Shown here one piece after another: positions 7,185 to 62,443 of a stretch of DNA of 64,000 nt. Each line of letters starts with the position of its first letter. Within the stretch, counting starts at the first letter, position 1. This DNA comes from Scenedesmus sp. PABB004 (taxonomy: Eukaryota), in assembly GCA_014905635.1 (NCBI GenBank), contig JABVCE010000034.1, forward strand, positions 62,001 to 126,000. The letters run 5' to 3'. The notes beneath the pieces were generated by a model. That model had not been told where the DNA came from. It worked only from the letters and a program-made list of their open reading frames with translations, and made no database searches. The position numbers and the translations under genes were made by a program.

Positions 7185-9486
7185 TCACTCGCCGTCAAAC
7201 TCGCCGGGCCGCGCCTCGCGCCAGCGCTCGCCCGGCGGCAGCCGCTCCACGCGCTGCCGCCACGCCGCCGCCTCCTCCTCGCGGTCTTCTCGCTCGGCCT
7301 CGCGCAGCCGCTGCAGACGGATGCGGGCCGCGCGGGGACGGCGGGGCAGCTCCGGCGCCCAGCCGGGCGGGTCGGTGCTCACGCCGAGCTCCCGCGTGTC
7401 GGGGGGCGCGTCGCGGCCGCCGCCGCCGCGCCCGCCGTGCCCCGGCCGCCGCGCCCGCGGCCGCTGCGCCCGCGGCCCCTGCCGCGCGCGCCGGCGGCGC
7501 CGCCGCGCGCCACCGCCGCATCGCCCCCCCGGCCGGGCTCTGCGGCTGCAGGGCTGACACCCGTCAGCGAGCCGGCGCCCAACCCCAGCCGCTCCGACGC
7601 CGTGGCCGCCGCCGCGGCCGCCGCGCTGGCTGCCAGCCCGCCGCTGGCGTGCCAGCCGCCGGCGCGCTCGCCCGCGGCCGCGCCGGCCGCCGCCTGCTGC
7701 GCCGCCAGCAGCGCGGCCGCGCGCGGGCGCAGCGCGCCGGGCTGCACGTCCGCCGCCGCCTCGAGCGCCGCGTACGCCTGCCGCACGATGCCGATCTGGG
7801 CCGCCGAGAGCTGGTCCAGCTGGCGGTTGAGGTGCGCCTCGTGCGCGTCCATCCAGGGCGCGCCGGGGAAGAAACCCAGGTCTGCAAACCCCGCCGCCGC
7901 GTCCACGAGCGCCGTGTGCGGCAGCGCGGGGAGGCCGGGGAGGATGCAGTCGGCCAGGTCCTGCGCCGCCGGCGGCGGCGGCGGCGCGCGGCGCGCGGCG
8001 CGCGGCGGCGGGGTGGGCGGCGCTGCGCGCGGGCGCCTGCAGCGCGGCGCCGCCGCCGCCGCGCCCCGCGCCCGCGCCGTCCCCACCTGGAGCAGCCAGC
8101 AATAGCGCCGCAGCCACGCCGTGGCCGCGCCCTCGCCGCCCGCCGGCAGCAGGCGCGGCAGCGCCCAGACCAGCGACGCGGCCTGCGCGGGGCTCGCGGC
8201 GCCCAGCTGCTGGTGGAAGAGCTCCAGCACGTAGCAGCTGAACGGCGCCGGCGGGCGGTGGCCCAGCTCCGCGAGGCCGACCGCGACGATGGCCAGGCCC
8301 TGCGGCGGCATGTGCTGCAGCTGCGGCACGACGCACCTGCGGCGGCGGCGGCGGCGGCGGCGGCGGTGGGCCGCGGCTGCCGCCCCCGAGCGCGCGCGCG
8401 GCGCGCCCGGCCGACGGCGGCGCGGCGGCGCGGGCTCCGGGGCGCGACGCAGGCGCGGTGCGCCCGCTGCCAAGCAGCCCGCCCCGCGCACCGGCAGTAC
8501 TCCTGCAGCCAGCCCGGCGGCGGCGCGTGCTCCCAGCAGCCCAGCGCCCAGATGATGTTGGTGAAGGGCTGGTCCCGCGCGCCGCCCGACAGCCCCGGCA
8601 GCGCGGCGCCAGCGTGGCGCACAAAGTCCTGCGCGCCGCGCGCGCGGCGCAGCGGCGGCGGCGGCGGCGGCGCGCGTCGCGCGGCGTCGCGCGGGCGGGC
8701 GGGCGCGCGCGCGCCGGCTGCGGCGCCGCGCCTGCAGCCAGATGCGCTTTGGCCGCACGTCCATGCGCGCGAGCGCCCACGCGAGCGTGCCGAAGCCCTG
8801 CCCCGAGAAGGAGCCAAACTTGACCTGCGAGGAGGGGCGCGCGCGGCGCCGGGCGGGGCGGCCGGTCAACTTGAGCGCGGCGGCGCTGAGGGCGGCGGCG
8901 GCCCGCTGCGGGGCGGCGCGCGGGCGCCGCGCCGCGCGCGCGCGCCTGCGCCTCGAGCAGCAACGAGTCGAGCACGGCGGCCGGCAGCTGCAGCTGCAGC
9001 ATCGCCGCCGCCCACACGACGCTGCACAGCTCCGGCGGCTGCAGCGCGAGCAGCTGCCCCGGCAGGTGCGCGACGTACGCAGCCAGCCACGGCGCCGGCG
9101 GCGGCGCGCCCCACTTGGCAAACACCCACAGCGCGTTGGCGGTCTCGACGTTGTTCAGGCTCGGCAGCCGCGTGTGGCTCTCGGCCGCAAACGCGGCGAG
9201 CCAGTCGTCGTCGGGGGCGTGCCCGAGCCGCGCGAGGCCCCAGGCGAGCTGCAGCAGCACCTTGTTGCTCGCGCCGCCGCCGCACAGCTGCGGCCGGGTC
9301 GCGTCGAGCATCGCGTCCAGCGCGTCGCCGGGCACCGCCGACGACGCGCCGAGCCGCGCGAGCGCGCCCACGACGCACGACGTCTCCACCAGGCTCGCCG
9401 CGTCGAGGCGGGCGACGAAGCGCGCCACGAGCTCGTCCACCAGCGCCCGCAGCGCCTGCTGCTCGCCCCGCGCCGCCCGCTGCTGC

Positions 9487-9527
<41 letters not shown>

Positions 9528-10034
9528 CTCCGCCTGCGGCGGCTGCTGCTGCTGCTGCTGCTGCGCCGCCGCGCTGCGCGCCGCGAGCTGCCCCGGGTGC
9601 AGCTTCGCCGCGCGGCTGAGCGCCGCGCTGATGTGCACGGGCGTGAGCGCCGCGGCGTGCAGGCGCAGCGTCGCCTGCAGCTGCGCCAGGTCCGGCGCGC
9701 GGCTCAGCTGCGCCGTCAGCAGCCCCGCCAGCACGGCGGGGTCGGGGCCGTCGCCGCCGCCGCTGCTGCCGCCCGCCGCGGGCGCGCTGCCGCCCTGGAA
9801 CAGCAGCGGCGCCGGCTCCTGCCGCGGCTCGGCCGGCCGCCCGCGCCCGCCGCCGCCGCCGCCGCCGCTGCCGGAGCTGCCGCGGCCGGCGACCGCCGCG
9901 CCACGCGCCGCCGCCGCCGCCGCCGCGCGGCGGGCGCAGCGCTGGCCGCCGCCGCTGCCGCCGCCGCGGCGCGCCAGCGCTGCCGCCTGCGGCGCGGGCC
10001 GCCCGCCCGCCAGCAGGCCGCCCAGCGGCGCCAT
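7185..10034 (-). CDS. Octotricopeptide-repeat (OPR) organellar RNA-binding protein
   Basis: ~38-aa helical repeats with LWALAxLG...PPxxW motifs (ANALWVFAKWGAPPPAPWL, LAWALARMDVRPKRIWL, IIWALGCWEHAPPPGWL) and an Ala/Arg/Gly-rich transit-peptide-like N-terminus. Several introns. Stop is at 7379 as read, or 7185 if a 1-nt indel near 7440 is corrected. Confidence 0.85.
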
Positions 10035-27723: not shown

Positions 27724-27808
27724 TCGCGACCAAGCGAAGTCGTGATTGTCACTTCTGACCTGCACCCCGCCTTCAGGAAGTACCGCGGCGCTGAACCCGC
27801 CACCCGGG

Positions 27809-27859
27809 GGAAATTGGACGCTGGTTGGTCGAAAGAAAAGGAAATTGGACGCTGGTTGG
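27809..27859 (+). repeat. 20-bp direct repeat GGAAATTGGACGCTGGTTGG x2 (CCAAT on minus strand)
   Basis: Seen at 27809-27828 and 27840-27859 in an AT-richer intergenic stretch upstream of the 27194 gene. Confidence 0.7.
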
Positions 27860-28072
27860 CATTCTTAAGCGCGCGGGGCGGCGGGGAAGAACAGAAGAAC
27901 AGAAGTCGCCGACGGCGCCGACCAATCCCCACCAGCGCCGGCCGCGGCCTCGAGCCGGCGCGGGTGACGCTCGGCCCGCGGCCTCGAGCTGGGGCTGCCG
28001 CCCGGCAGCGCTCGCCACGCCGGCGGGGCTCGCCGCCCAGTCCATGGCCTCGGCCGCGCCCTCCAGCACGCG

Positions 28073-31000
28073 CTAGCGGCGGCGCCCGCGCGGGCTGTCC
28101 GCGCCGCTGGACGCGGCCGCCTTGCGCTTGGGCCGCCGCGCGGCGGGGTGGTCGGCGGCGGCCGCCGTGGCCTTGACGGCGCGCGTATCGGCCTCGCCGT
28201 CGTCGCCGGAGTCGTCCCTGCGGGCGGCGCGGCGGGGCGCGCAGCGCGCGGTGGGCGCGTGCCGCTGCCACGCACGCCGCCGCCGGTGCCGCCGCCGCGC
28301 GACCGTCGCTGCGGCGCGACCGCCCCGCTGCCGCGCCGCCGCCGCCGCTGCTGCTGCTGCGTCGCGTGCCGCCGCCGCGCCACCGCCGCTGCGGCGCTGC
28401 CGCTGGCGCGTTGGTCGTCGCGCGCACCGGCAAGAGCTGCTGGGCGCCCCGCCCTCCTCGACGAGCTCGTCGCCCGTGCGCACATAGTCTGGGGGTTGGC
28501 GGCGACGGGGCGGGACGGCAGGGAGCAGAGGTCGGCGGGCGCGGCGAGGCGGGGCGGGGCGAGGCGAGGCTCGCGCGGGCCCGGCAGCGCGCCAGCGCGG
28601 CGCGTGGCGCTCACCCTCATACGGAAAGTTGAGCTTCGCGCCCTTGCCGTCGCGGCGGATGGCGCCGCGGTCGTACGCGCGCGCCGCGGCGACCTCGTCG
28701 CCATAGTAGCCTAGGTGCTTCTTCTTGCCGGCGATGCTCATCTGCGCTTGCCAGCGCCTGGTCGCCTTGTAACGGCTGACGCCACTGCGGGGCGGCGGCG
28801 GGCGCGAGCGCGCGCGCGGGGCGCGGGGGCGAGGGCGCGGCGTCGGGCGGGCCGGGTCCCACCTGGGAGGGGGGGGTGCAGGCCCGTCGTGCGCGCGGCG
28901 GCACTGCCCGCCTCCCGCGGCCGTACGCCGGCGCGCACCAGTACTCGGAGCTGCAGTTGACGTTCTTGATCCTTGGCTTGAGCTCCACCTCAAAGGCTGG
29001 GGAGGGGGGCTCCCAGGCCTCTCCCAGCAGCTGCTGCCCGAGGTCAACGACCACCTTTCTGCGGCCGCCGCGGCCGCTGGGCTGCTGCTGTGTGGGCGGC
29101 GCGCTAAGGCTCGGCGCCAGCGTGAGCGGTGCCACGCCCGGCGCCGCCGCCGCGCCCGGCGCCGCCGCCCACTCGAACAGCGGCGCGGTGCCCGGCGCCA
29201 GCTCGCCGCGGCCGGCTGAGCCGCGCAGGCCGGCGGCCGCGCCCGGCGCCGCCGCCGGCGCGTGCTGGGGCTGCTGCTGCTCGGGCCGCGCGGCGAGGCC
29301 CGCCGCCGGCAGCCATGTGAGCTCGTGCTCGCCTGCCCCGTCGGCGTCAGCGGCGCCCGCGCGGGCGAGGCGGGCGAGCACGGCGAGGGCAGCCTCTACG
29401 GGCGGGCCGTCGGTGGCAGCCGGCCTGAGCGGAGCGGGCGCAGCGGGCGAGCCCCACTCGCCCGCGTCGCCGTCGCCCGTCGGCGCGCCGAACAGCTGTG
29501 GCCCGTCCTCCTCCATCGCAGCGCCGCCGGGCGCCGGCGCCGCCGCGGTCGTGGCCGCCGCGACGGCCGCGGCGTCGACGGCCTGGCGCTGCGCCTCAGC
29601 CTCAGCCGCGACGCGCGCGTGCGCGACAAGGTCCTGCACCAGGCCGGGCGGGTCGGCGCCCGCCTCCGCGCGGCGCCGATAGCACAGCACGTACGCGGCG
29701 CGGCTCTGGACCTGTGCGGGCCGGCGCGGGCGGCGGCGCGTCAGCGGCGGCGGGGCGGCGGCGCGAGCGGGCGCCGCGAGCGGGCGCTACGCGCGGCGCG
29801 CACCGCCTCTGGGCTGATCTCCTCGACGCGTCTGTCGTCGAAGCAGTGCCAGCGCCGGTCGCCGGGCATCTGCGCCGCCGCGGTGTAGTGCCCGCCGCCG
29901 AGGCCGCCGTAGTGGTTGCTGACCGCGTAGCAGTCGTACAGCAGCGGTTGCGCCGCCTGCGGGCCGAGCACGTAGCGCGAGAGGTCGAGGCCCTCCAGCG
30001 GAAAGTCGACCAGCGTGTCGAGCTTGTCGCGGCCCCAGCTCGTGTAGCTGAAGCGCTTGAGGTGCACGACCAGCACCTCGGGCATGCTCCAAAAGTCGAG
30101 CTTCTTCTCGGCCTGCAGGCGCGCGCGCGGGGCGGCGGCGGCGATGTGCGGCGGCGCCGGGGTCAGCGGCGCGCGACTGCGGCGTGTGAGCGCGGCGGCG
30201 TGCGCGCGAGGCCGGCGCCTGGCGGCACCCGGCGGCGGCGGCGGCGGCGCCCAGGTGCGCGCCTGCATGTGCGACTTGCACTTGGGGCAGTACCACTCGT
30301 CCGCCTCACTGAGCTGCTCGGGCTGCAGGAACGTCTCCACGCACGCCTCGAGGCCGACGCTGCGCCCGCGCGGGTCGGCGCGCGCCGCGCGGATGGCCCC
30401 CAGGCTCGCGTCAAACTCGGGCTGCTCCAGCGCGTCCAGCACGTAGTCGCCCACGACCACCACGTCGCCGCCGGGCGCGGCCGCCGGCGCGCAGCCGACG
30501 AGCGGGCCGCTGCCGGGCCCGGGCGGCGCCCAGAAGTGCGGGTCGGCGCTCGGGCCGGGCGGCGCGAGCGCCGGCGCGGGCTGCCCGTCGTCGTCGTCGC
30601 CCTGCGCCTGCAGGGCCGGCGGCGGCGCCCCCGCCGCGCCCGGCTGCTGCTGCTGCTGCCCCGGCTGCTGCTGCTGCTGCTGCTGCTGCCGCGCTACGCT
30701 GCCCTGGTCCAGCTGCTGCTGGTCCTGCTGCTGCCGCTCCACCGCCGCCGCGGCCGCCGCTGCGAGGTAGGCCTCCGCGCTGTGCGCCGCGCCGCAGCCG
30801 GCCTGCCAGTCCAGCACGAACGTGCTGTGGTGGACGTGGGGGTGGAAGTGCGACGCGCACCACGACGCCACGCTCGTGCTGCAGTCCGCCGTGTCACGCG
30901 CGAGCTTGAGCAGGTATGGCGGCCAGGCAGCGCCGCCCGGTGTGCCGGCGCCGGGCGTGCCCGCCGCGGGCGCGGCGGGCGCCGGCTGCGCCGCCCAGAG

Positions 31001-33924
31001 ATCCAGCGGCGTGACCGGCACGCCGCCGCTGCCCAGCACGCCTGCGGCGCTGCCGGCCGCGGCGCCGCCGAGCTCCGCCGCGGCGAGCGCGGCTGCCGGG
31101 TCGGCCTCGCCCTCGCTCGGGGAGCCGCCGCCGCCCGGCGCCGCCGGCTGCAGGTCCGCCAGGCCGCCCAGGTCCATGTCGCTGGCGGCGCCGCTGGCGG
31201 CGCCGCTGCCGCTGCCGTGGCTGCCCCACGAGTTGTTGTCGCCCGCCTCGCTCGCGGCGGGCGGCGCGGCGCCGCGCGGCGCCGCGCCCGCCGCTTGGCG
31301 CGAGGTGCAGCAGGGGTCGGGGCTGGGGCTGGGGTCGGGGCTGCCGGGCAGGGCCGACGCCGCCGCCATCGACACGTCCGGCGCGCCCGCCGAGCCCGCC
31401 GGCTGCGCCGCGCCCGGTGCGCACGCGGCGCCGCCGTCGCCGCCGCCGCCGCCGCAGCTCAGTGGCGCGCGCTGGCGCAGCGCGGACACCGCCAGGAAGG
31501 GCCGCAGCATGCGGCGCACGTGGCGCCACAGCGGCGCGGCGTGGCACAGCGCATACTCCTGCTGCCCGTTGGCGCTCAGCCCCGCAGGCGCGACGTGGCC
31601 CGGCTCGTACGTCTCGCTCGGCGGCAGCCACAGCAGCAGCGGCGCGCTGAACTTGTCGTTGCCGCCGCCTCCGCGCCGCTGCCCCCCGCGCCGGTGGTAC
31701 ACCACGACCTGCCGGGCGCGCCGCGAGCGGACGCGGCGTGAGCGGCGGTGGGGGCAGTGGCGGCGCGGGCAGCGTGTGCTGTCGCGCGGCACGCCGCACC
31801 TTCTGGCTGCCCTCGCCCGCCGGGCCGGCGGCGGGGTCTGCGTAGTAGTAGACCAGCAGCGCGCCGGGCGGGCTGACGCTGTGCGGCTGCAGCTCGCTCA
31901 TGCGCGCGCGCGCGTCCTCGTGCACCACGAGCGCGTAGCTCGACGTCGGGCTGCTGCTCGGCCGCGCCGCGACCATGTGCTCCTCCGGCCGCTCCAGCGC
32001 CAGGCCCGCGGCGCGCGCGAGCGCGGCGTACAGCTCACGCAGCGTGCCTGGCCGCGGCGGCGGGCGCGGCGGGCGCGGCGGCGGGCGCGCGGCGCCGGGT
32101 GAGGCGCGGGCGCGCGGCGGACGCGGCAGCGCCGCGGCCGCCTCCGCGCCGCGCCGCGCCGCGTCGCGCCGCACCGCTGTGCGGCACCTCCAGCCCGAAC
32201 TCGCGCGGCGGCGCTACGCCGTCGGCGTGCATCAGGATCGCCTCGACATGGCGCACGCGGCTCTCCGGCAGCGGGAGGCTGAGGTACATGAAGGGGTCGA
32301 GCTTGACGCTGCTGTACCCGCACCCGGGGCACACGAGCGTCGACTTGTACAGACCCTGGCGCCGCGGGGGGCGCGCGGCGCGGAGAGGCGCAGCGCGGGG
32401 CGAGCGTGGTGCCCGGCACGTGCGCCGGGCGGCGTGCACGCGGGGCGGGGCGGGGCGGATGCGGATGCGGCTGCGCGCGCGGGGCGGCGGCGGCGCACGG
32501 GCGCGCACACACCTGAAAGTGGTCCACGATGTGTGAGTCGTTGCGGGCGCGGTAGTTGGCCCACGCGCGCGCCGCGAGCTCCGCGTCGGACACACCCTCG
32601 CTGTCCGGCTCCTGCGCGCGCCGGCCGGCCACACGGCGGCGTGCGGCCGTGGGCGGCGGCGCGCAGGCGGCGCGCGGCCGCGCAGGCGCGCCCGCCGCCG
32701 CCACAGCAGCCGCCGCGGGGCCCGTGCCGTCGCAGCAGCAGTCACCTCGATGTAGGGTTTGACGTGGATTCGGTTGATGTCCTCGTGCAGGCCGTCCAGC
32801 AGGAAGGCGAGAAACTCTTGGCTGTCGTGCTGCTGGTGGCCGTCGTGGAGGATGTAGCGCTTCAGCGGCAGCAGCGCGGCGTCCAGGCCTTGGTCGTCGT
32901 CAGGCACCAGCGGCTTGACCTGGCGCCCGCGCGGATGCAGTGCGGCACGCTCAGCCGGCGTGCGCGGCGGGCTCCCGCTCGGCGAGCGCGTGCGCGCGAC
33001 CAGCAGCCGGCTGGATCCTCACCTTGCCGGTCGCGATGATGTCGGTCATGCGCTCGACCACCTGCTCCCAGCTCACGCAGAGCTGCCCGTCTCCGAGGCA
33101 CTCGCGCGGCAGGAACGAGGCGCCTGCGCCGGGTGCCAGGGGGCGCGCTCAGCCAGCGCCGCGCGCTGTGGCGGCGCGTGGCCGCGCGCGCGGCCTGGCT
33201 GCGCGCGGCGGGGCGGCGCGCGGCGGGCTCGCGCACCCGGCTTCACGCCCGCGTTCAGCAGCTCGGCGGCGCTCGTGCACCACACGCCCTCGTGCACCGT
33301 CCAGAGCGCAAGGATGCCCTCGATGCCTGCCGCCGCTGGCTGGAACGTGTAGTACACCGCCCGCGGCCGCGGCACGATGCCGCAGCTCTCGCTGAACTGC
33401 AGGCCTGTGCTCATCTGCACGAGCACAGGGTACAGGTGGCCGCTGCCGTCGCGCACGGCCAGGTCAAAGCACATGCCCGGCGTAGGCCTGTAGGGGGGCA
33501 GGCAGGCGGCGGACGGCGGCGGCGGCGGCGCGTGTTGCCACGCGGCCGCGCGCGGCGCGGCGCGGCACGGCACGGCGCGCTCACCTGAGCACAGCGACGA
33601 GGGATGAGCCCATGCCCTCAGCGGCGGCGTTGAAGCTGGACACCATGTCGTGCTCCGCGTGTTGGCTGAGCGCGTTGTGGACGGCGTAGCAGGTGACGCG
33701 ATCGACCGGTGCGCGGTTGGTGCCCCTGACCTCGCGCTGGCCCGAGTCGAGCGGATGCCTGCGAGCGTGGGCGCGCATTGAATCAGCTGCTGTGCACGCG
33801 GCGCAGCCTGCGCGGCGGCGATGGCGGCGCCGCACCCCTGGAACTGCAGCGCCATGGCTCTGGCTTTTTTGTCAGCGCGCCAGCGCCCGCCCTGGGCGCC
33901 CTGCGCCGTCGGGTAGCCCGACAT
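28073..33924 (-). CDS. Chimeric gene: PD-(D/E)XK-like N-terminal domain, ubiquitin-specific protease lacking the Cys box, C-terminal AP2 domain
   Basis: Continuous spliced frame. USP motifs [94 protein letters not shown]2 motif [19 protein letters not shown]...[32 protein letters not shown]. No GNTCF/GNTCY upstream. Alternative start at 33855. Confidence 0.8.
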
Positions 33925-34971
33925 TGCGGGCCTCAGGGCCTCAGCCCAGCTGCGGCGGGGCGGCAGGCGGGCGGTGCGGGCGCCGTGGGCGCAGCTAGCC
34001 GTCGCAGCGCGGCTCGCCCCGTGGCGGACGTTGAGGGCATGGGCTGGCCGCCGCCGCGTACGTCGCGCACCTTTCCGGCCCGCGCCACTGCCGCGCCCGT
34101 GGCAGCCCCGTCGCTTTTGTCTGCAGCGCGGCGGCCGGCGGGCGGCGGGCGTGAGCACGCGGCGCGCGCAGCAGCGGCCGCTGCTGCGGCTGCCGCGCCG
34201 CGACCGCGCGGCGCGGCCGGCCTCCAGCGCTCTTCAAAACGGCGCGTGTCATTCGCGGCGAACGCGCCGGGCGCACGGGGGCGCAGGCGCGCTCGGGAGC
34301 CGGGGGCGCGCCTGCCATCCCATCGCTGCCCGCACCTGCTCGTGTGCGCATCGATCCCAAGTCGCGCGATCACACGGCTCGCATGCTGGTAGATGGCGTG
34401 CGTGAGCGGGCCTCTGCCGCCAGCCGCGCGCCAGGCACGCAACGCGAGGGGCCGAGCTGCTCGACGAGTTCGATCCTGCGCGCGCGGTCGTCTCGGCGTG
34501 CGCCTGCGAGCGCGCCAAGGCGCGATTTCTCACCCCTGAGCGACGGGCGCCGCGGCAGGGGCGCAGCAGCGGGCGTCGCTGAGCCCCCCGCCGCGCGCCC
34601 GCCGCCGCCGCCGCCGCGCGTGGTTGCTGCCACGGCACGTCACAGGCTCGCTCGCCGGCCGGCCGTGAGCACGTTTGCAAGGCGACACTCATCGACTGGC
34701 CGCCGCCTGCACCAAGGGCCGCCCGTTGACCTGCGGGCGGCGCCGGCCGCGGCTGCAGGGCGGAGAGTGGCGGCGCGCGGGCCAGCCAGTCGTCTAGGTG
34801 GAGCTGGGCCTTCATCTGCCTCTGCCTCTGCCTCGCCGCCTCGCGACGCGGTGCTGCCCCGACAGAAGCTCTTGGCTCGTTGAGCTGCGGCCACCTCGGG
34901 CCCTAGCTTCGGCGGCGGCAGCGGCGCCGGCGGCGGCTGCAGCGCAGCGCTCCCTGCTCAGCTCGCGGGCG

Positions 34972-35527
34972 GCCGCGTACGCATGTCGCACGATGCCGAT
35001 CTGGGCCGCCGAGAGCTGGTCCAGCTGGCGGTTGAGGTGCGCCTCGTGCGCGTCCATCCAGGGCGCCGGGGAAGAAACCCAGGTCTGCAAACCCCGCCGC
35101 CGCGTCAACGAGCGCCGTGTGCGGCAGCGCGGGGAGGCCGGGGAGGATGCAGTCGGCCAGGTCCTGCGCCGCCGGCGGCGGCGCGCGGCGCGCGGCGGCG
35201 GGGTGGGTGGCGCTGCGCGCGGGCGCCTGCAGCGCGCGCCGCCGCCGCCGCGCCCCGCGCCCGCGCCGTCCCCACCTACAGCAGCCAGCAATAGCGTCGC
35301 AGCCACACCGTGGCCGCGCCGTCGCCGCCCGCCGGCAGCAGGCGCGGCAGCGCCCAGACCAGCGACGCGGCCTGCGCGGGGCTCGCGGCGCCCAGCTGCT
35401 GGTGGAAGAGCTCCAGCACGTAGCAGCTGAACGGCGCCGGCGGGCGGTGGCCCAGCTCCGCGAGGCCGACCGCGACGATGGCCAGGCCCTGCGGCGGCAT
35501 GTGCTGCAGCTGCGGCACGACGCACCT

Positions 35528-35563
<36 letters not shown>

Positions 35564-36376
35564 GGCCGCGGCTGCCGCCCCCGAGCGCGCGCGCGGCGCG
35601 CCCGGCCGACGGCGGCGCGGCGGCGCGGGCTCCGGGGCGCGGCGGGCGCCTGCGCGGCGCGCCCCCTGCCAAGCAGCCCGCCCCGCACACCGGCAGTACT
35701 CCTGCAGCCAGCCCGGCGGCGGCGCGTGCTCCCAGCAGCCCAGCGCCCAGATGATGTTGGTGAAGGGCTGGTCCCGCGCGCCGCCCGACAGCCCCGGCAG
35801 CGCGGCGCCGGCGTGGCGCACAAAGTCCTGCGCGCCGCGCGCGCGGCGCGCGCGGCAGCGACGGCGCGCGTCGCGCGGCGCCGCGCGGGCGGGCGGGCAC
35901 GCGCGCGCCGGCTGCGGCGCCGCGCCTGCAGCCAGATGCGCTTGGGCCGCACGTCCATGCGCGCGAGCGCCCACGCGAGCGTGCCGAAGCCCTGCCCCGA
36001 GAAGGAGCCAAACTTGACCTGCGAGGAGGGGCGCGCGCGGCGCCGGGCGGGGCGGCCGGTCAAGTTGAGGGCGGTGCTGAGGGCGGCGGCGGCCCGCTGC
36101 GGGGCGGCGCGCGGCCGCGCCGCCCGCGCGCGCGCCTGCGCATCGAGCAGCAGCGAGTCGAGCACGGCGGCCGGCAGCTGCAGCTGCAGCATCGCCGCCG
36201 CCCACACGACGCTGCACAGCTCCGGCGGCTGCAGCGCGAGCAGCTGCCCCGGCAAGTGCGCGACGTACGCGGCCAGCCACGGCGCCGGCGGCGCGCCCCA
36301 CTTGGCAAACACCCACAGCGCGTTGGCGGTCTCGACGTTGTTCAGGCTCGGCAGCCGCGCGTGGCTATCGGCCGCA
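34972..36376 (-). pseudogene. Intron-retaining partial duplicate of the OPR gene (source ~7768-9189)
   Basis: Near-identical to the OPR gene including introns. 2-nt deletion at ~35064 (frameshift in FFPGAPW) and 3-nt deletion at ~36288. Lacks both the 5' part and the native 3' end. Confidence 0.85.
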
Positions 36377-38030
36377 GAACTCATAGTCTCTGCGGGACGG
36401 CGGCTCCAGCGGCTAGAGCCGCCGCTGGTCCTCCGCGGCGACCACTCAACTGCACGCGCGCGTTCGGCGCGCAGCTCCGCGTTGGCCTGCAGCGGGGGGG
36501 GGGGGGGGGGGGGGGGGGGACGCGGCGCGTCGAGCTGGCACGGCACGGGGCCGGTCGCACCTGATGGTATGCGCGCATACCAGGCGCGCGCTGCGCGCCG
36601 CCGCGGCTCCAGCCGGCGACCATGCTGCCGCCGCCGCCGGCCGCCGCACGAGCAGCGGTCCATGAGAAGCGTGAGGCACCGCATGTAGCTGGTGACGTCG
36701 AATGGGGGCTGGTAAAGAGCCCTTGGGAGGCTCGGGCACGCCTCCGACGACGACTGGCTCGCCGCGTTTGCGGCCGAGAGCCACGCCCGGAGGGAACGGG
36801 CGGTCCGGGGCGCACGCCGCTGCACTCGTCCCCGCTGGACGCCCTGCGGTGCACGGCATCCCTGGGCTGACACAAGCGGCGGGCGAGTGCAGGGGCAGTG
36901 CTACGGCAGGGCTTAGGGTTGCCCGGCCCCGGGTCGCGCGTACAGCCGCGCGACCCTAACGCTCGCCCGCTCAGCAGCTCCGCCAACCCAACGCCGGTTG
37001 GTCACGCGCGCCAGCGCGAGGCCACCACGCCGCCGCGCGGCCAGGCGGCCGACCGGCGCGCGGAAAACGCCCGGCGCCGCCCGGGCGCGCATCTCTGGCG
37101 GGAGCGGCGCCGCGCATGGACCACGTACAACGATACCTAGGCTTACATTGCGCTGGCTGCCCAGCCGCGCGGCTGGGCGGGGGCGCGCCGCCGGCCATCA
37201 GCAGCAGGACCAACGCGCGCTAATATGCGACGCGGGCCGGCTCTGATGCCTCGCTCCGCACGGGAGAGCTGCAGGCTTTGCACCGGCCCGCGCGGCGCGG
37301 CCACGCGGTCCGGCGCCGGTGCCGCGGCGGTGCCGCCGGCAGCGCAGCTGCTGCCAGGTCCACGTGCCCGCGGCGGCGCACTGCAGCGCCGCTGCAGGCC
37401 TCGCGCTTGGCGGGGAGGCATCAGGGGTGGCCACTGCGCAAGACTGTGGCCGCGGTGGCCGGCTGTGACGGTACCCGCGGCCTCGACGCGCTGCCGCAGC
37501 GGCTCGCTGCCGCCGCAGCGGCAATAGAGTGTTGGGCCTCGCCGCCGTGATGCTGTCACGGCGCAGGCGCGGGCTGCCCAGAGAGCCTACGATGGAGGAG
37601 CAGCAGCAGTGAAACGACGCCGCGCCCGCATGTCAAGGGCGCCGCGCGGGCAACACGGGCGCCGCCCGCGGACGCGTCGGGCGGCGCGCGGGGCGCCCAG
37701 CGCGCGCGCGCGTGGGGCGGCGGCTTGCGGCGGGCTCGCCCCAGCCTCCACGCACTCGGTGCAGGCCGCCGTCGCCTCCCGCGTGCGAGCTGACGCCCCG
37801 CCGCCGCGGTTCGCTTGCCACAAGCGCCTGTTCGCCGCCGCTTCCAGCGCGGGGTCAGCCGGGCTCCCCCGGCGCCGCGGCCGCTCCCAGGCCCGACTTA
37901 CGGATAATCTCGACCGCCGGACCCGCGCGGCAGCCTTCCGGGCACGCGGCGAGCCGTTGCGCGCATCGGTCTGCCCGCCCGTCCGTCTGCGCGGCGCGGC
38001 AAGCGTGAGTGCACCCCACTGCACCCCACC

Positions 38031-60477: not shown

Positions 60478-62443
60478 TCACATGAACAGCACGCGGCCAG
60501 GGTGGTGCCGGCACAGCGGCACCGCCAGCCCCGCGCACGGCGGGGCGGCGCACGCGCACGCGCAGGCGCCGCAGCCGCCGGGGCACAGCGCCGGCGGCCG
60601 CGCGAGCGCGCACGCGTGGTGGCGGTGGCAGCCGCACGCCGCCGCTGCCGCCGCCCAGCTGTGCTGCTGCTCCGCCACGACGGCGTGCGCGGCGTGCGCG
60701 ACGCATCCAGGCGCCCAGCCGCGCGCGCAGCAGTGCGGCGCCTGCGCGGGCGCCGCCCAGCTCAGCCCGCCTTGGCAGGCGGGCCCGGCGGCCGGGCTGC
60801 GTGGCAGCGGCGCACACGGCGCAGCGCAGGCGGCGCCCCAGCCGCACTGGTGGGGCGGGGCGCCGCCTGCCGCCGGCGCAGCGCTCCAGCCCCCGCCATG
60901 GCCAGCGCCGCCCGAGCACGTGGGGCAGCCGCAGGCCGGCTCCGCAGGCGCCGGCGCTGGTGCGGCGCGCTGCGGGCTGGCGGCGCAGCAGCCGCACGCT
61001 CCGCGCGCTGGCGCCGGCGCGGGGCTGCGCGGCGGCTGCTGCGGCGCGTGCTGGTGCGGGCGCCAGCCGCACGGGCCCGGGCTGCCGCCGGCGCCGATGC
61101 TGGCGCCCGCCAGCCGCGCGGCGAGCGCGCTGGGGCTGCTGTGCTGCTGCGGCGCGGGGCTCGCGGCACCGCGCGCAGCCGTGGCCGCAGCCGGCGAGCC
61201 GCCGGGCTCAGGGTCAAGGTCAGCGGGCCAGCTGGGCTCGGGGCTCCCCCAGCCCGAGTGGGCCGCGCCGCGGCCGCCGCCGCAGGGCGCCGGCAGCTGC
61301 CCGGGGGCGCGGCCGAGCGCGCCCGGCTGCGCGAGCTCGTGCGGCGCCGCGCTCCAGCTGCGCACCACCTCGACCGTGGCCCTGCGCCCCGGGGGCGCGG
61401 GGGCGGTGTGGGGTGCGGCGAGTTCGCGGCGCGCCGCCAGCCCCGGCCGCTGCGCAGCAGCGTGCAGGCCCGCGCCTGCCGCCGCCAGGGCGGCGCGCGC
61501 GCGGCGCACCGCACGACGAGGCAGTCGCCCGCGAGGTAGCGCCCCGCGTGCTGCTCCAGCAGCGCGGCGCGCACAAAGGCGGGGTACCCAGCCACCACGC
61601 CCGCGCCGCCGGGCCACGCCGCGCGGGGGCCGCCGCCGGGCGACGCCCCCGGCTTTGACGCGCGCGTGAGGTGGCGCCCGCGCCCCGACTGCGCGCGCAG
61701 GCGCGGGCGTGGCGGCAGTCGGGGTGCGGCGGCGGCCGCGCCGGCGCCCTCGACAGCGCGTGGGCATGGGCGCGGACGGCCCTCCTGCAAGGCGGCGGGC
61801 GCGCACCTGGTCCAGGATGGCGATCTCATGCAGCACGTGGCACGGCGCTGTCGCGGCGGCGGCGCCGTCGGGGCCGCAGGCGGTGAGGAAGACCGAGACG
61901 TGCCCCGCGCTGTCTGCCGCCACGCCCGCGGGCCAGACCTCCAGCCGGAACGACTGGCCGCCCGCGTCAAACGCGTCTGAGCACACGCGCGTGCCGGGGC
62001 CCAGCGAGCGGCAGAGCGCGAAGCTGCGCGCGCGCGGGCGTCGGTGGCGGGCGGCGCGCGCCGCGGCGGCGGCAGCGCGGCGCGGCGCGGTGCACCCACC
62101 CGCTGATTGTGTAGCAGTGCGCAGCGCCGACGGTGGTCAGCTCGCGGAAGCTGCTGCTCGCCTGCAGCCCCGGCCACGCCCAGGGCCGCGCAGCGCCGCC
62201 GCGCTTGGCCGGCAGCGACCGCGCCACGCGCCGCTCGCCGCCGCCGGCGCCGGCGCCGGCATCGGCGGCGGCGGGGCCGCCTGGCGCCGGCGCAGGCGCG
62301 GGCGCCGCGGGCTGCACGGGCGCCGGCGGCGTCGCGGGCTGCTCCGCGGGCGGCGGCGCCGCCGCCGCGGGCTGCTGCTCCTCGGACTGCTCCTCCGCCG
62401 GCGGCGGCGGTGCGGGTGACCCGTCCTCGGCGGCCTGCTCCAT
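60478..62443 (-). CDS. MATH (TRAF-like) domain protein with Cys/His-rich tail
   Basis: HCYTISG|FALC...SDAFDAGGQSFRLEVWPAG...HVSVFL, ILDQ|SGRG, GYPAFVRAALLE..YLAGDCLVVR|ATVEVV. No BTB domain follows. Confidence 0.8.

Follow-up and report, generated by a model that had tools for sequence, protein, structure and literature searches.

The USP4/11/15-type deubiquitinases (DUBs; the plant UBP5/8-11 group) are the closest described relatives of a chimeric gene predicted at 28073..33924, on the minus strand, of a 64-kb window from the very GC-rich green alga Scenedesmus sp. PABB004 (the window is the whole stretch of DNA analysed, 64,000 nt, positions 62,001 to 126,000 of contig JABVCE010000034.1). 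With these enzymes the chimera shares the QQD box, the CxxC pairs, a large internal insert, the His box and the FDD motif. It differs from them in having no DUSP domain, no Cys box and none of the first 84 of the 254 positions of the UCH profile, and in carrying foreign sequence fused at both ends. Its USP relatives are a parent in the same genome (P0002) and an ortholog in Tetradesmus obliquus (P0003). The explanation preferred here, with a probability of roughly 0.55, is that the locus would be a young chimeric AP2 gene carrying a catalytically dead, fast-evolving USP passenger that is kept open by the AP2 domain downstream of it.

USP-derived domains without cysteine catalysis are known from USP39/Sad1 and PAN2/USP52, in which the whole fold is kept, the catalytic residues are substituted and the proteins are ancient and conserved. 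The chimera, in contrast, is truncated and lineage-specific and has diverged by about 8% from an active parent. The AP2 domain resembles that of WRI1 (7wq5) in a match of 60-70 residues, from SSEY.GV to NFP.E.Y; unlike the WRI1-like proteins, the chimera has a single AP2 domain with a Cys in YRGV and a Pfam score below the gathering level, and a USP remnant stands in front of it. The Drosophila gene jingwei is a young chimeric gene that arose by partial gene duplication or exon shuffling. Genes of this type resemble the present locus in that a fragment of a parent was copied into another gene, in the open chimeric frame and in the asymmetrically fast change of the copy; here the copy was made at the DNA level with its introns retained, the catalytic residue of the donor domain was removed, and the gene is predicted from sequence. 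The locus has what is expected of a young chimera: a parent copy that can be identified, homology that starts and stops sharply, and junctions that keep the frame. The process, formation of a chimeric gene by partial duplication, is known, and the USP-AP2 architecture is unusual. A link to the HNH homing endonucleases with AP2 domains had also been suggested in an earlier reading of this DNA, hereafter the original prediction. The likeness is restricted to an AP2 domain beside a putative nuclease; the AP2 domain of the chimera is of the plant/algal transcription-factor type, no nuclease signature was detected, and the suggestion is not supported.

An internal USP fragment and its parent gene

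One deposited protein, P0001, carries the name 'UBP11 [Scenedesmus sp. PABB004]' (1,698 aa, 315-kb contig) and matches the exon at 33487-33237 with 100% identity. P0001 could be rebuilt letter for letter from 15 minus-strand exons separated by 14 GT-AG introns with 77-94% GC. Twelve of the 15 exons lie inside 28073..33924 and the remaining three upstream. As obtained by exon mapping on the minus strand, the 5' part of the chimera consists of exons 33758-33585, 33487-33237, 33123-33023, 32919-32746, 32611-32513 and 32355-32175, and the 3' part of exons 32047-31800, 31708-29804, 29711-28939, 28784-28615, 28488-28428 and 28217-28073. Codon periodicity is present in the annotated frame in every exon of P0001, the GC content being 0.88-0.98 at third codon positions (GC3) and 0.22-0.71 at second positions (GC2). 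A continuous spliced frame runs on the minus strand from an N-terminal region (N-region) through the USP remnant and a linker to the AP2 domain, which agrees with the original prediction; the motifs named there were also found in their places.

Coding signal has to be judged against the composition of the window, where the GC content is 73-83% throughout (the PABB004 assembly comprises 39.8 Mb in 77 contigs with 78.5% GC and 7,092 genes according to Table 1 of PMC12571836). The stop density is 0.0089 per codon, or one stop in 112 codons on average when all six frames are counted, and stop-to-stop open reading frames (ORFs) of at least 40 aa fill all six frames, 99 of them overlapping 27-35 kb. 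Because stops are rare at about 78% GC, an open frame alone is weak evidence in the window, and the case is carried by homology, splice sites and periodicity rather than by openness. Long ORFs overlap on both strands everywhere in the window, and the periodicity measured as GC3 minus GC2 was far better than openness at telling exons from introns.

The USP fragment, as delimited with BLASTP, tblastn and Pfam, occupies 3,394 nt at 29448..32841 (minus strand) and extends, introns included, from the QQD box to the C-terminal tail. The Pfam UCH family (PF00443) matches aa 474-1327 with E 6.3e-42, at profile positions 85-254 of 254 only. The fragment keeps the QQD box, two CxxC pairs, the GGGHY His box and FDD. 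No Cys-box motif, either NTC or a relaxed fragment, is present on the minus strand between 32 and 42 kb, and tblastn of aa 1-445 of P0002 against the window gave low-complexity noise only. The absence of the Cys box beside intact zinc-finger CxxC pairs and His box had been predicted correctly. With the Cys-box region gone, the predicted product cannot be a catalytic DUB, as had also been claimed.

A search for USP homologs with aa 416-700 gave 787 proteins at E<=1e-5, and the comparisons below use the 120 matches listed. Among these, the closest after P0001 itself is P0002, a protein of 1,522 aa from the same strain that is encoded on a 4.85-Mb contig and has a DUSP and a UCH domain with a normal, full Cys box. 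The DUSP domain (PF06337) is listed for P0002, P0003 and most of the homologs among these matches, and not for P0001. In BLASTP of P0002 against P0001 the alignment is confined to aa 474 (GHQQHD) to about 1404 (GEWGSP), that is, from 32841 to about 29448, and tblastn with P0002 and with P0003 both start at 32841. The full-length parent, which the original prediction had proposed to look for in the genome, thus exists and aligns only between the two junctions.

In a global alignment of P0001 and P0002, 800 residues out of 872 (91.7%) are identical and 72 differ, and there are 15 gap events. Three of these gaps are set aside, two as introns that one gene model or the other has kept and one as an end effect, which leaves 12 coding indels. 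The P0002 model reads through one intron as 44 extra residues (aa ~478-521), and these are homologous to the window intron 32745-32612. The shared intron homology points to duplication at the DNA level rather than retroposition. Both deposited 'UBP11' models, P0001 and P0002, contain retained introns.

The USP piece is, as read from the genomic sequence, a 3,394-nt copy of genomic DNA, introns included, placed in a coding exon and in frame at both ends. The original prediction of an in-frame insertion of a ~3.3-kb intron-containing USP fragment is borne out in its size and in its junctions, at 32841 and ~29448-29450. Taken alone, this structural history, a duplication with in-frame junctions, is very probably correct. 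An AP2-like or N-region-like segment is found in none of the 119 other USP homologs among the matches listed, and the fusion therefore appears specific to this locus. Nor was the architecture, which had been thought undescribed, met with in searches of the literature on the strain and on USP-AP2 algal chimeras. A search for transposon ends (inverted or direct repeats) in 26.0-38.5 kb gave GC-rich low-complexity repeats only.

The N-terminal region, the linker and the AP2 domain

The N-region is an orphan of about 200 aa at 32842..33758 (minus strand), delimited by GT-AG introns and periodicity. It had been thought to run within a single exon into the USP part. The crossing is real, exon 32919-32746 passing from non-USP sequence directly into GHQQHD at 32841, whereas the region itself spans four exons (33758-33585, 33487-33237, 33123-33023 and 32919-32842), with GC3 of 0.88-0.97 and GC2 of 0.27-0.52 in frame. 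Three-frame translation gave a candidate start codon at 33776..33778 (minus strand), in frame with the first of these exons; the ATG, at 33778, sits immediately before exon 33758-33585, which is the first periodic exon. The ATG at 33924, from which the first exon had been predicted to begin, is in another frame and in sequence nearly without codon periodicity. It would need an extra frame change.

A degenerate PD-(D/E)XK nuclease fold had been proposed for the N-region and found no support. There was no match at E<=10 in Pfam and NCBIfam or in the PDB, and the one match in PHROGs, with E 0.065, is to a family whose function is unknown. The candidate third motif is Q-M-S, with no Lys and no acidic residue. 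AlphaFold single-sequence models reached a pLDDT of 32.9 (201 aa) and 35.9 (128 aa) and were too poor for a fold search; they place a beta-hairpin at MCFDLAV / LYPVLV after helices, which is not evidence at such confidence. The ESM Atlas gave no usable match for aa 273-420. A word-based search with exon 33487-33237 over longer proteins returned P0001 itself only. The exhaustive HMMER search with the same exon gave 14 matches at E<=1e-3, each in 3-12 stretches, that were judged spurious; 11 of them are bacterial Ig/cadherin/HYR repeat proteins aligning to one 10-residue stretch. A metagenome scan with the N-region exon yielded 172 pattern matches and no relative. The N-region is coding-like by its periodicity and would best be described as an orphan of unknown fold, not as a demonstrated nuclease.

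The sequence 'GVWC...' at the end of the N-region was also considered as a degenerate Cys box or a diverged USP thumb, and this was rejected by alignment against the N-termini of P0002 and P0003. In local alignments of aa 273-473 with these N-termini the observed score was reached by 229, 255 and 295 of 300 shuffles, with z<0 for the Cys-box region. The sharp start of the paralog homology at 32841 is a further reason for the rejection.

At the other junction the USP tail continues, in the same exon and frame, into an Ala/Pro-rich host linker at 28939..29447 (minus strand), which ends in the first AP2 strand, SSEY. The exon concerned, 29711-28939, contains 257 codons without a stop and has a GC3 of 0.89 in frame; at the stop density of the window, an open linker of 257 codons has a probability of about 0.10 of occurring by chance. 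The exon with the core AP2 domain (28615..28784, minus strand) was identified with phmmer against the PDB. WRI1 (7wq5) matches with E 4.4e-14, both of its AP2 repeats aligning to query residues 19-88, and ERF096 with E 0.0014. The WRI1 alignment begins at SSEY, in the last codons of exon 29711-28939, and extends beyond NFPYE into the next exon, so that two predicted introns fall within the AP2 domain, a point in favour of their splicing. The claim that the domain is complete is sustained by the WRI1 match and is not sustained by the Pfam AP2 model, which stays below its threshold. The nearest Atlas clusters to the domain are chlorophyte AP2 proteins, which is taken as a lead only. A metagenome contig of 1.3 kb (L001) carries at 454-579 an AP2 segment that shares 48% identity with the AP2 exon, and is too short to give any context.

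The gene is closed by two C-terminal exons (28488-28428 and 28217-28073; 28073..28488, minus strand, by exon mapping), which encode a basic tail and end in a TAG stop at 28075-28073. The poly(A) motif TGTAA has three minus-strand copies in the 64 kb (37147, 21928 and 45457) and is hence uninformative; the copy at 37147 is a possible 3'-end signal of the gene that lies upstream of the mosaic.

A truncated FASTK-like duplicate upstream

Exons 1-3 of the NCBI model P0001 lie in a truncated pseudogene copy of a FASTK-like helical-repeat gene at 34972..36380 (minus strand). The parent segment is found at 7767..9189 (minus strand; gene region 7200-9900), and the parent gene runs past both ends of the segment. 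In blastn of the window against itself, 34972-36376 matches 7767-9189 with 95.1% identity over 1,433 nt, gaps counted. The aligned core, 36380-34972, is 97.4% identical to the parent, with 37 mismatches in 1,399 bases and 9 indels, introns included. The duplicate is direct, lies 27 kb from its parent and 1.2 kb upstream of the chimera, and has both its ends within exons. Lesions not shared with the parent are an exonic deletion of 2 nt at 35067 and a CAG>TAG change at an exon end, and the frame of the parent copy is intact where that of the duplicate is broken. At only 2.6% divergence, the fragment is thus already frameshifted and stopped. The copy at 7.8-9.9 kb is regarded as the parent because tblastn with the orthologs P0135 and P0138 continues there, upstream of the duplicated segment, to ~9734. 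All 12 homologs (P0135-P0146) of aa 1-473 of P0001 match aa 1-272 only, none of them reaching aa 273-473. One is named FAST kinase leucine-rich domain protein, and P0135 has a sub-threshold match to FAST_1.

Between this fragment and the chimera the NCBI model places a 1,521-nt 'intron' (33759-35279), which is almost without coding signal from 34972 to ~33800. The bulk of it is a spacer without coding signature at 33779..34971 (minus strand, by periodicity score). The GC3-GC2 score is at most 0.18 from 34980 down to 33840, save for one 120-nt window at 34860 (0.28), compared with 0.3-0.7 in exons. The 'intron' is an annotation artefact that skips the broken FASTK-like exons near 35165-34972 plus the ~1.2-kb spacer, and the three FASTK-like exons are probably not part of the chimeric gene. 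The N-region was also considered as a RAP domain (PF08373) belonging to the upstream FASTK-like gene. This was rejected, as no RAP match was obtained at E<=10 and the FASTK-like piece is a separate truncated duplicate; the 15 ORFs downstream of the parent FASTK-like copy contained no Pfam family at E<=0.01. The FASTK-like pseudogene had escaped the original prediction, as had the accelerated change of the USP copy and its GC donor.

Evolution of the USP copy and explanations of the locus

The relative-rate test took T. obliquus as the outgroup. The three proteins compared have the same residue at 405 sites, and the test counted 31 changes unique to P0001 and 7 unique to P0002 (chi2 15.2, p 1e-4; 4.4x). 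The corresponding numbers are 7 and 1 when the count is confined to sites that at least 7 of 9 other chlorophyte orthologs conserve. Change in the copy is about four times as fast as in the parent, and invariant sites are affected too. Each of the 12 coding indels between the copies has a length divisible by three, which is true of neither of the two in the comparable intron (Fisher p 0.011); the counterpart of intron 32745-32612 in P0002 reads in three successive frames, which requires at least two frame-changing indels in 134 nt. No frameshift and no stop is found in the ~2.8 kb of USP-derived exons. Collinearity with P0002 further revealed an intron of 150 nt with a GC donor (CAG GCGCGC, cut after CAG) at 30113..30262 (minus strand), which the P0001 model translates instead of splicing it out, adding 50 residues that are absent from P0002. 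Its removal is the only in-frame GT/GC-AG excision that preserves the collinearity.

The sequence of events suggested for the young chimeric AP2 gene is as follows. An internal 3,394-bp piece of the DUSP-USP (USP4/11/15-type) gene of this genome was duplicated at the DNA level together with its introns and set, with both junctions in frame, into a coding exon of what would be a gene ending in a single AP2 domain. The resulting open frame leads from the orphan N-region of ~200 aa through a USP remnant without DUSP domain or Cys box and a disordered linker to the AP2 domain. The remnant would be a decaying passenger whose sole constraint may be to keep its frame and its splicing intact, since the AP2 domain is encoded downstream of it. 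The protein, if made, would presumably still be an AP2-type DNA binder.

Several points weigh against this explanation. The chimera is known here from genomic sequence alone, and three different starts are possible for its 5' end. That the flanks formed one gene before the insertion is suggested by the frame they share when the fragment is removed, an outcome with a 1 in 3 chance, and no uninterrupted relative of the flanks (an N-region-AP2 gene) was found. The Pfam AP2 family (PF00847) scores 14.5 bits against a gathering score of 33.3 (E 0.046), and the arginine of YRGV is replaced by a Cys whose codon is formed across a splice junction. The frame-maintenance test is weak. Many of the exonic indels are in codon-level tandem repeats (polyQ, Gly runs and a GTPGG repeat), and these are a weak sign of selection because such repeats slip in threes without it; the indels are unpolarised as to lineage, and one intron was compared. 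The rarity of stops at 78% GC makes their absence uninformative. Quick change at invariant USP residues and a GC donor would suit a dead gene equally well, and the comparison of copy and parent was made at the protein level.

The main rival is a dead mosaic pseudogene, a possible explanation though clearly the less likely one. The USP fragment would have killed its host gene, or the locus would be a patchwork of non-functional pieces, open because it is recent and because stops are rare. A second ectopic fragment, the FASTK-like one, is clearly broken only 1.2 kb upstream; the USP copy changes 4.4x faster than its parent, with invariant residues replaced; one intron of the fragment has a GC donor; the N-region has no homolog in protein searches; and the density of stops is 0.0089 per codon. 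Set against these facts are the 12 of 12 exonic indels that keep the frame, as against none of the 2 in the comparable intron, and the GT-AG borders kept by four of the five USP-fragment introns of the gene model and by all host introns, the GC donor being in a sixth USP intron that the model reads through. The strong codon periodicity in all exons, the orphan ones included, and the well preserved AP2 domain also argue against a dead locus.

It is improbable that separate transcription units were merged by gene prediction, for example an AP2-only protein starting from Met aa 1382 in the USP-derived tail, in which case the N-region and the USP piece would form an independent or silent unit. An in-frame Met does lie upstream of the AP2 domain, P0001 demonstrably takes in a piece of a foreign pseudogene by way of a false intron of 1.5 kb, and only 7,092 genes are annotated in 39.8 Mb in the table cited above (PMC12571836). 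The signs of a single gene stand against such a merger: no stop interrupts the USP frame ahead of the AP2 exon, the linker keeps the in-frame periodicity, and the less GC-rich, intergenic-like stretch that follows the final stop (27751-27926) has no counterpart between USP and AP2.

Two functional interpretations give the USP remnant a role of its own. It is quite doubtful that the gene is an expressed and selected transcription factor in which the cysteine-less remnant has been co-opted as a non-catalytic ubiquitin reader. The fingers with the Zn ribbon, the internal insert and the palm would then recruit the AP2 domain to ubiquitinated chromatin or keep it there, and the locus would be a newborn 'reader-DNA binder' fusion, a few percent diverged from its enzymatic parent. 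About as doubtful is the proposal of a functional DNA-targeted ubiquitin-binding pseudo-enzyme with a degenerate PD-(D/E)XK N-terminus. Its architecture and in-frame junctions are real, and the Zn-ribbon cysteines, the His box and the Asp remain; the N-region, on the other hand, matches no nuclease family, structure or homolog at very permissive thresholds, and its motif has no Lys. The USP remnant has moreover lost the first 84 of the 254 UCH profile positions, which is more than the cysteine, and its conserved residues are being replaced. In the USP fold, loss of the first 84 profile positions leaves the thumb incomplete, and makes folding and ubiquitin binding doubtful.

An assembly artefact, a chimeric contig joining reads of the USP gene with an unrelated locus, might be imagined in an extremely GC-rich genome assembled from few contigs, and is very unlikely, since a protein divergence of ~8% from P0002 (72 of 872 residues, and 12 indels besides) marks a distinct locus rather than misassembled parental reads and both junctions lie inside open, periodic coding sequence.

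A practical lesson of the locus and its surroundings is that gene prediction in a genome of 78% GC merges unrelated fragments, here a broken FASTK-like duplicate across a 1.5-kb false intron, and that long open frames in such a genome mean little by themselves. Parent and copy are present in one genome, which makes a direct comparison possible. If the chimera is expressed, it would be a dated case of the birth of a new multidomain regulator, in which an enzyme domain would lose its nucleophile at the moment of duplication, ride in frame inside a transcription-factor gene, and then decay or be co-opted.

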